Assembly (NCBI RefSeq): GCF_003991155.1
Contig: NZ_CP031293.1
DNA from: Escherichia coli
GTDB lineage: Bacteria > Pseudomonadota > Gammaproteobacteria > Enterobacterales > Enterobacteriaceae
Strand: one strand, 5' to 3'
Length of the DNA: 64,000 bases
Part shown: one piece after another, positions 37,816 to 39,394 of the stretch
Position numbering within the stretch: position 1 is the first letter of the stretch
Layout: every line of letters starts with the position of its first letter
Program-made: the position numbers and the translations under genes
The notes under the pieces: generated by a model
What the model was told of the DNA's origin: nothing
Database searches by the model: none
Seen by the model: the letters and a program-made list of their open reading frames with translations, nothing else

Positions 37816-39093
37816 ATGAAAACCAAAGTTGCTGCTATTTATGGCAAGCGGGATGTCCGTCTGCGCGAATTTGAGCTGCCAGAAATTACCGATAATGAAC
37901 TGTTAGTGAATGTAATTTCTGACAGCGTTTGTTTATCCACCTGGAAAGCGGCGTTACTCGGTAGTGAACATAAACGCGTCCCCGACGATTTAGAAAATCA
38001 TCCGGTCATTACCGGGCATGAATGTGCTGGGGTTATTGTCGAAGTGGGTAAAAATCTCACTGGCAAATATAAAAAAGGCCAGCGTTTTGTATTGCAACCG
38101 GCGATGGGGTTACCAGGCGGGTATTCAGCGGGCTACAGCTACGAATATTTTGGCGGTAACGCCACCTATATGATTATTCCCGAAATCGCCATTAATTTGG
38201 GCTGCGTATTACCCTATCACGGCTCTTATTTTGCTGCGGCGTCGCTGGCAGAGCCTATGTGCTGCATTATTGGCGCTTATCATGCCAATTATCACACCAC
38301 GCAATATGTTTATGAGCATCGCATGGGCGTCAAACCTGGCGGCAATATTGCGCTACTGGCGTGTGCAGGCCCGATGGGAATTGGCGCTATCGATTACGCT
38401 ATTAACGGCGGCATACAACCGGCGCGGGTGGTGGTAGTCGATATCGACGACAAACGCCTGACGCAGGTACAAAAGCTGCTGCCGGTGGAACTGGCGGCCA
38501 GTAAAGGCATTGAGCTGGTGTATATGAATACCAAAGGGATGAGCGATCCGGTCCAGACGCTGCGGGCGCTGACGGATGATGCCGGATTTGATGACGTATT
38601 TGTCTATGCAGCGGTGCCTTCAGTCGTCGAGATGGCTGATGAATTACTGGCTGAAGATGGCTGCCTGAACTTCTTTGCCGGTCCGACGGATAAAAACTTC
38701 AAAGTGCCGTTTAATTTCTACAACGTCCATTACAACAGTACGCACATTGTCGGCACGTCCGGCGGTTCCACGGACGACATGAAAGAGGCGATTGCCCTTA
38801 GCGCCACGGGGCAGTTACAGCCGTCGTTTATGGTGACCCATATCGGTGGCCTGGATGCGGTGCCAGAAACCGTGCTCAATCTGCCGGATATCCCTGGCGG
38901 TAAAAAACTCATTTATAACGGCGTGACCATGCCGCTGACCGCCATTGCCGATTTTGCCGAAAAAGGCAAAACCGATCCGCTGTTTAAAGAGCTGGCGCGG
39001 CTGGTTGAGAAAACGCACGGTATCTGGAATGAACAGGCCGAGAAATATCTGCTGGCACAATTTGGCGTTGATATTGGGGAGGCCACGCAATGA
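37816..39093 (+). CDS. yggP: Zinc-dependent alcohol/polyol-phosphate dehydrogenase family protein
   Basis: 425 aa; MDR fold with 'GHECAG' zinc site. Confidence 0.85.
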
Positions 39094-39394
39094 TGTCCCT
39101 GGCGTGGCCATTATTTCGCGTTACGGAACAGGCAGCGTTGGCTGCCTGGCCGCAAACCGGCTGTGGCGACAAAAATAAAATTGATGGCCTTGCGGTCACC
39201 GCGATGCGCCAGGCATTAAACGACGTTGCTTTTCGTGGGCGAGTGGTTATCGGCGAGGGGGAACGATATCCTCTTTAGCGCTACGGGCGTGACGGGCGGC
39301 GAGTTGGTGAACGGTATCCAACAGACGGCGAATGGGGTGCGGACGCAGACATTACTGATCGGCGGCGCGGACCAAACGTGTAATATAATAGACT
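39090..39394 (+). pseudogene. yggF: Class II fructose-1,6-bisphosphatase (GlpX paralog) remnant with internal deletion and frameshift
   Basis: N-terminal 60 aa '...[34 protein letters not shown]' runs into a stop after 'RYPL'. The GlpX-like C-terminus '[47 protein letters not shown]' follows directly in a different frame, so roughly 215 central codons are missing. Confidence 0.75.

Follow-up and report, generated by a model that had tools for sequence, protein, structure and literature searches.

The fructose-bisphosphatase gene yggF is a lineage-fixed pseudogene in part of Escherichia coli phylogroup B2, carrying a 650-bp deletion at a 9-bp direct repeat

Between the genes yggP and fumE, K-12 and other Escherichia coli genomes carry yggF, a full-length gene for a GlpX-type fructose-bisphosphatase (FBPase). 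In the window analyzed here, a stretch of 64,000 nucleotides of E. coli contig NZ_CP031293.1, the full-length gene is absent between yggP and fumE, and two pieces of it lie there in different reading frames. This raises the question of whether the gene was lost by a mutation private to this strain, by an error of assembly or by an event shared with a larger lineage, and by which route the missing part disappeared. A sequence-only reading of the window had proposed that yggF is a stub left by a clean internal deletion of about 650 bp with a frameshift. Our analysis supports this proposal: the locus is almost certainly a yggF pseudogene that goes back to one 650-bp deletion between 9-bp repeats and from which no phosphatase is made. 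The features of the locus, with the evidence for each of them, are as follows.

37816..39093, plus strand: yggP (zinc-binding dehydrogenase), intact, 1278 bp, 425 amino acids; open reading frame, annotated yggP equally long in all fetched genomes.
39090..39263, plus strand: yggF N-terminal remnant, codons 1-58 (MMSLAW...VVIGEGE); open reading frame list, translation, TIGR00330 profile, RefSeq.
39255..39263, plus strand: deletion junction, where one copy of the 9-bp direct repeat GAGGGGGAA remains; alignment of the window with intact yggF.
39264..39278, plus strand: out-of-frame tail RYPL and premature TAG of the N-terminal yggF open reading frame; open reading frame list, translation.
39262..39405, plus strand: yggF C-terminal remnant, codons 275-321 (NDILFSATG...DSLH), with the original TGA; translation, TIGR00330, alignment.
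39427..39936, plus strand: fumE (yggD, fumarase E), intact, 510 bp, 169 amino acids; open reading frame, annotation in relatives.
39933..40646, plus strand: yggC (nucleoside/nucleotide kinase family), intact, 714 bp, 237 amino acids; open reading frame, annotation in relatives.

The N-terminal open reading frame (39090-39278) encodes 62 amino acids, namely 58 native YggF residues followed by RYPL out of frame, and it ends at a premature TAG at 39276-39278. Its start codon overlaps the yggP stop codon (ATGA). The C-terminal piece, consisting of 47 amino acids and the stop, lies in the next frame relative to the N-terminal piece. The translations are thus in agreement with the sequence-only reading, which had described about 60 N-terminal residues followed by a stop and 47 GlpX-like C-terminal residues in another frame; its end point of the remnant at 39394 had to be corrected to 39405, with the TGA at 39403-39405. 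The assignment to yggF, a GlpX-type paralog, is likewise borne out by position and by family membership. The gene row reads cmtBA-yggP-yggF-fumE-yggC, with the same yggP-yggF-fumE order as in K-12 and other genomes, and the flanking yggP and fumE, described earlier as intact and correctly spaced, have the same lengths as in these genomes, and so does yggC. When compared with the NCBIfam model TIGR00330 (glpX), the N-terminal fragment matched profile positions 2-59 (E=1.4e-25, 90.1 bits) and the C-terminal fragment positions 276-322 (E=1.4e-17, 63.9 bits). Both matches are far beyond chance.

As an intact reference we used the allele of strain 4/0, a 99.7% identical relative, in which the gene has 966 bp and encodes 321 amino acids (PGAP name 'glpX: class II fructose-bisphosphatase'). 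In the pairwise alignment of the window to this allele, a single gap of exactly 650 bp is all that distinguishes the two within yggF. Across the 341 bp aligned outside the gap a single difference was found, located upstream of the yggF start codon, and the junction contains no extra bases. The retained 316 bp are identical to both the intact ST131 allele and that of 4/0. The change of frame, also proposed before, follows directly from the size of the gap, because 650 is not a multiple of three (650 mod 3 = 2). An IS element or another insertion at the junction was considered as well and rejected, since the alignment is gap-only with no added bases. A search for structured RNA yielded no Rfam match above the gathering score in the region 33000-40000.

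The edges of the gap coincide with a short direct repeat. In the intact B2-type allele, GAGGGGGAA is present at gene positions 166 and 816, at a spacing of 650 bp, and ranks among the two longest exact direct repeats of the gene. The intact left edge reads GGC GAG GGG GAA / ATT GAC, and the intact right edge reads GTG AGG GGG AA / C GAT ATC. The left site is different in K-12, O157:H7 and two further genomes outside B2, where it reads GGC GAA GGA GAA, compared with GGC GAG GGG GAA in B2. The K-12-type and the B2-type site thus show two synonymous differences and encode the same amino acids. Because these two sites differ, the perfect 9-bp repeat is absent from K-12-type alleles, in which the left copy reads GAAGGAGAA, and the deletion allele was not seen on this K-12-type (non-B2) yggF background. 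The locus shows the properties of a deletion at short direct repeats, namely two parental copies spaced at the length of the deletion, one copy kept and no foreign DNA at the junction. From this footprint we infer that the junction is the signature of a slippage-type, short-homology deletion. A single deletion between the two GAGGGGGAA copies 650 bp apart in a B2-type yggF would have removed one copy together with all intervening sequence, presumably by RecA-independent slipped mispairing.

The deletion removed most of the catalytic center. The intact YggF, as encoded by the allele of the relative, matches Pfam PF03320 over residues 3-321 (E=3e-121) and reaches 586.3 bits against TIGR00330, for which the curated cutoff is 259.3 bits. 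It aligns without gaps over its whole length to the E. coli GlpX structures 1ni9, 3d1r and 2r8t (E about 1e-111). The active site of E. coli GlpX is formed by Asp33, Glu57, Asp85, Glu88, Thr90, Tyr119, Lys164, Arg166, Asp188 and Glu213 (PMC5892879), and all ten residues are conserved in intact YggF (D32, E56, D84, E87, T89, Y118, K163, R165, D187 and E212), with a constant offset of one residue between the two numberings. Eight of the ten are located in the deleted codons 59-274 (216 codons), leaving only D32 and E56 (corresponding to D33 and E57 of GlpX) in the window remnant. Both fragments fall below the TIGR00330 family cutoff (90.1 and 63.9 vs 259.3 bits), and the continuous frame of about 320-340 codons of the GlpX family is replaced by a 62-codon open reading frame with the C-terminal part in another frame. 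The locus thus derives from the GlpX family and encodes no member of it. Because codons 59-274 are lost and the frame is shifted, an enzyme can no longer be made: the 62-amino-acid peptide cannot act as a phosphatase, and the same holds for anything translated from the C-terminal frame.

We surveyed 5,426 complete genomes of E. coli for the distribution of the deletion. Of these, 5,414 were matched by a query of 721 bp that crosses the locus; the match was either contiguous, with a span of 721 bp, or split in two, with a span of 1371 bp. As a junction probe we used a 41-mer centered on the junction, for which megablast finds no seed in intact alleles. This probe was found in about a tenth of the genomes (556/5,426), once in each, on the chromosome and at an identity of at least 99%; a junction 90-mer was found in 557 genomes. 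The deleted 650-bp segment is present in 4,855 of the 5,426 genomes. Together, segment and junction add up to 5,411 genomes, compared with 5,411-5,414 genomes containing the flanks, so that essentially all are accounted for. With the full segment this widespread and the intact references at 966 bp and 321 amino acids, the idea that yggF is naturally short, which the earlier reading had named as a possible objection, was rejected.

The genomes carrying the deletion include CFT073, Nissle 1917, ABU 83972, ATCC 25922, the type strain DSM 30083, UTI89 and NU14, as well as S88, IHE3034, APEC O1, 536, NC101 and an ST80 isolate. We take CFT073 and Nissle 1917 to be ST73, UTI89 and S88 to be ST95, and 536 to be ST127. 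Dogs, birds, a bat, a koala, a marmot and water were the sources of further carriers. A B2-type left junction that is still intact, and in which the repeat is perfect, was found in 559 genomes. Human isolates make up most of the genomes listed; several are labelled O25b:H4-ST131 (e.g. EC958), and one is O127:H6. Accordingly, about half of the B2-type yggF alleles are deleted and half are intact. The gene is intact in the K-12, O157, ST131 and O127:H6 genomes. The nearest relatives of the window strain are FDAARGOS_1284 and YP3. As to whether the allele is lineage-specific, a point raised together with the original proposal, the survey shows that it is confined to part of phylogroup B2. The yggF deletion is a lineage-fixed pseudogene and neither a private mutation nor an artefact.

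How a lineage could dispense with this gene may be explained by the remaining enzymes. According to PMC8719807 (citing Brown et al. 2009), the FBPases of E. coli are Fbp, GlpX, YggF and YbhA, with Fbp being required for respiratory growth on glycerol, and K-12 YggF has FBPase activity. Aerobic glycerol use was unchanged in K-12 yggF knock-outs, and only growth in glycerol fermentation was lower (PMC8719807). The carrier CFT073 has an intact glpX of 1011 bp adjoining glpK. The loss of yggF would thus be tolerated because other FBPases remain, namely fbp and, in the glpFKX operon, glpX. At the locus itself, the N-terminal open reading frame is probably still translated, because its start keeps the overlap with the yggP stop. 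The start of fumE lies 21 nt past the old yggF stop and 148 nt past the new premature one, and this larger distance could reduce translational coupling to fumE. A less likely possibility is that either the 62-amino-acid peptide or the longer untranslated gap in front of fumE changes the expression of fumE and yggC.

To address whether the deletion has one origin or several, we aligned 13 carriers and seven intact genomes from cmtA through yggC, covering about 4.2 kb of flanks. The identical gap was present in all 13 sampled carriers, and their 316-bp remnants differ from each other at 0-2 positions. Their flanks are mosaic, with at least three fumE haplotypes and with yggP showing 1-50 differences from the window in 1274 positions. 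In strain DCE7 (pig lung, 4.42-Mb genome), the B2-type yggF deletion was observed in a partly K-12-like context. Here, yggC is K-12-like (103/710 differences from the window), the ECF transporter island described below is missing and epd directly follows yggC, as in K-12. The non-B2-like sequence at the 3' end of yggP in DCE7 extends to about 39075, while the remnant and fumE resemble B2. This pattern suggests that a short tract with the deleted B2 yggF allele was imported by recombination. The mosaic flanks of the carriers and the context in DCE7 require either recombination after one event or repeated deletion, and a single old B2 deletion combined with ordinary recombination appears to be the simplest reading of the mosaic. 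Most probably, the deletion goes back to one event within B2, which took place after the ST131 and O127:H6 lineages had branched off or separately from them. The deletion would then have become fixed in ST73, ST95, ST127 and ST80-type lineages, and later homologous recombination would have shuffled the flanks, including the transfer of a short B2 tract into DCE7.

The same data could also be explained by recurrent, independent deletion of the same 650 bp, with the perfect 9-bp repeat making the B2-type allele a hot-spot. The position of GAGGGGGAA among the two longest repeats in the gene would fit this idea, as would the differing flank haplotypes of the carriers (three fumE types, variable yggP) and the partly non-B2 surroundings of the deletion in DCE7. 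However, the intact at-risk allele is found in 559 genomes, mostly of the well-sampled ST131, and hence is stable, and the remnant haplotype is near-identical in all sampled carriers. Mosaic flanks are, moreover, the expected outcome of E. coli recombination around an old allele, and the non-B2-like sequence in DCE7 ends about 100-200 bp left of the junction, just as expected for an imported fragment. We therefore regard repeated deletion as rather unlikely and favor one deletion followed by recombination. Another point concerns the force behind the fixation, since the loss of yggF might have been positively selected in extraintestinal B2 lineages rather than fixed by drift, for instance because a futile FBP/F6P cycle or a phosphatase with harmful side activity was thereby eliminated. 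Metabolic genes are in excess among the B2-specific losses, which was described as a hallmark of selection (Touchon et al. 2009, PMC2617782). The allele is also fixed across several successful ExPEC lineages, but ST131, an equally successful ExPEC lineage, retains yggF. In addition, yggF presumably belongs to a cryptic operon, which we count against an adaptive loss. The K-12 knock-out phenotypes are mild (PMC8719807), and overall positive selection appears unlikely. A combined scenario, in which the B2 allele was predisposed to the loss by the two synonymous repeat-creating changes and the deletion, being adaptive in non-ST131 B2 ExPEC, was favored and hence spread between backgrounds by recombination, with DCE7 as one import, is quite unlikely.

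Two further explanations concern the remnant as such. The source genome might contain an intact yggF, with 650 bp collapsed in assembly or sequencing. While a collapse between repeats is generally possible, nothing further speaks for it in this case, and a 9-bp repeat is far too short for an assembly collapse. The same junction recurs in 556 complete genomes that were assembled independently of each other and with different technologies, among them CFT073, UTI89, 536 and Nissle 1917, and the 650-bp segment is found nowhere else in the junction-carrying genomes. Mis-assembly, the second objection named by the sequence-only reading, is thus practically inconceivable. Alternatively, the remnant could still be functional, be it as a split or recoded enzyme, as the 62-amino-acid N-terminal peptide or as the 56-amino-acid C-terminal open reading frame annotated by PGAP. 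In favor of this, the N-terminal start codon still overlaps the yggP stop, RefSeq annotates a 56-amino-acid 'fructose-bisphosphatase class II' CDS over 39235-39405, and few further mutations have accumulated in the remnant. Yet 216 codons with 8/10 catalytic residues are physically gone, and both fragments score far under the family cutoff (90 and 64 vs 259 bits). The small open reading frames called by PGAP differ between genomes over identical sequence, which is typical of annotation noise. The low divergence is predicted just as well by the general similarity of B2 alleles, with the intact ST131 allele being identical at the retained sites. A functional remnant is, therefore, highly improbable, and the pseudogene formed by one short-repeat deletion remains our explanation of the locus.

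The surrounding genes are largely preserved. The window and 12 of the 13 carriers sampled have intact copies of cmtB, cmtA, yggP, fumE and yggC. The marmot isolate STEC299 has, in addition to the yggF deletion, a frameshifted yggC (fetched segment 3715-4417), and the dolphin isolate DFL.5 carries an IS1 element inside yggP (fetched segment 1167-3220) together with an intact yggF. This independent damage in STEC299 and DFL.5 suggests that the whole cmt-ygg row is under weak constraint.

Several other elements were observed in the window and its relatives. Between tkt and a prohibitin-family gene, the window contains a 1,277-bp insertion (33303-34579), which is absent in FDAARGOS_1284 and YP3, both being 100% identical on either side. 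Its open reading frame (33407-34387, minus strand, 326 amino acids) matches NCBIfam NF033542, 'IS110 family RNA-guided transposase' (E=8.5e-75, 252 bits vs a cutoff of 140). The size of the insertion and the length of the protein presumably fit IS621. No match to an Rfam family was obtained for it. A 25-kb query including this IS110-family element had a median of 27 match places per E. coli genome, a number that refers to the whole query and not to the element alone. Between yggC and epd lies an ECF-type transporter island (40618 to about 44000, minus strand) comprising two ATPase genes, a T component, an S component and a PPC-domain DNA-binding protein. Among the genomes examined, those of B2, O157 and others possess the island; K-12, DFL.5 and DCE7 lack it and have epd directly after yggC. 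Inside its first ATPase gene (open reading frame 40618-41250), a second short-repeat deletion was found at about 41175-41183 on the minus strand. Here, 78 bp (26 codons, in frame) are missing in comparison to CFT073, and the junction lies at one copy of the 8-bp direct repeat TGGCGCGG. The lost codons directly precede the GAGKST P-loop, so that the protein now reads ...ISYRWP-GAGKSTLL. Because they adjoin this motif, the shortened ECF ATPase is probably crippled. FDAARGOS_1284 has the same short form, with a CDS of 600 bp vs 678 bp.

Further along the window, at about 51216-51999 (segment 22938-23721 of the nearest relative), an 'acetyl-CoA hydrolase, incomplete' and a 'methylmalonyl-CoA mutase family protein, incomplete' are annotated in that relative. 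These remnants point to another deletion, in the scpA-argK-ygfGH region, which B2 strains were likewise recorded to lack (Touchon et al. 2009, PMC2617782). Finally, a 243-amino-acid 'hypothetical protein' is annotated in the nearest relative between speA and speB (segment 1253-1984), corresponding to about 28252-28983 of the window.

The loss of yggF is real, ordinary, and already annotated and published. In every carrier examined, RefSeq (PGAP) lists 39090-39263 as a pseudogene, 'fructose-bisphosphatase class II, incomplete, missing C-terminus'. Some genomes additionally contain a small CDS for a 56-amino-acid 'fructose-bisphosphatase class II' (WP_369808866.1, window 39235-39405), and others one for a 32-amino-acid hypothetical protein (WP_250146959.1, window 39307-39405). 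Both CDSs appear to be products of annotation over the yggF remnant and should be treated as such. Table 5 of Touchon et al. 2009 (PMC2617782) includes yggF with the functions that group B2 strains specifically lack, and the entry is without the mark that would extend the absence to EPEC E2348/69. This fits the intact yggF that we found in an O127:H6 genome. Our analysis adds the exact size of the deletion, the junction repeat, the dependence on two synonymous sites and the counts in 5,426 genomes, leaving the nature of the finding unchanged. The locus provides a clean example of how a short repeat, arising from two synonymous differences, sets a gene up for deletion. It can also serve as a marker in a single PCR, with a product of 721 bp in ST73/ST95/ST127-type B2 strains and of 1371 bp in ST131-type B2 strains and all other E. 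coli. Consequently, the YggF FBPase is to be omitted from metabolic models of CFT073, UTI89, 536, Nissle 1917 and ATCC 25922.

In comparison with known systems, the closest intact counterpart is K-12 YggF (b2930), which is an ortholog by position and sequence. The retained 58 and 47 residues align to it without gaps, but the K-12 protein has its full 321 amino acids, unlike the window remnant. GlpX itself (PDB 1ni9, 3d1r, 3big and 3bih) is encoded by a separate gene in the glpFKX operon; of its ten active-site residues, the window locus keeps only two. The pseudogenes of the B2 reference strains CFT073 (C_RS30940/C_RS30935), UTI89 (UTI89_RS30000/29995) and 536 (ECP_RS27985/27980) share the identical junction, with both the 90-mer and the 41-mer matching at 100%. 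Their neighbors and length are as in the window, and they represent the same allele, with only flanking SNPs differing. With respect to the route of loss, the deletion resembles those in lacI, where Albertini and colleagues reportedly described in 1982 spontaneous deletions between short direct repeats, attributed to slipped mispairing. In both cases, the lost segment lies between two short perfect repeats of the parental sequence, one copy is left and the junction contains no foreign DNA; in contrast to lacI, the mechanism proposed for yggF is deduced from this footprint alone.
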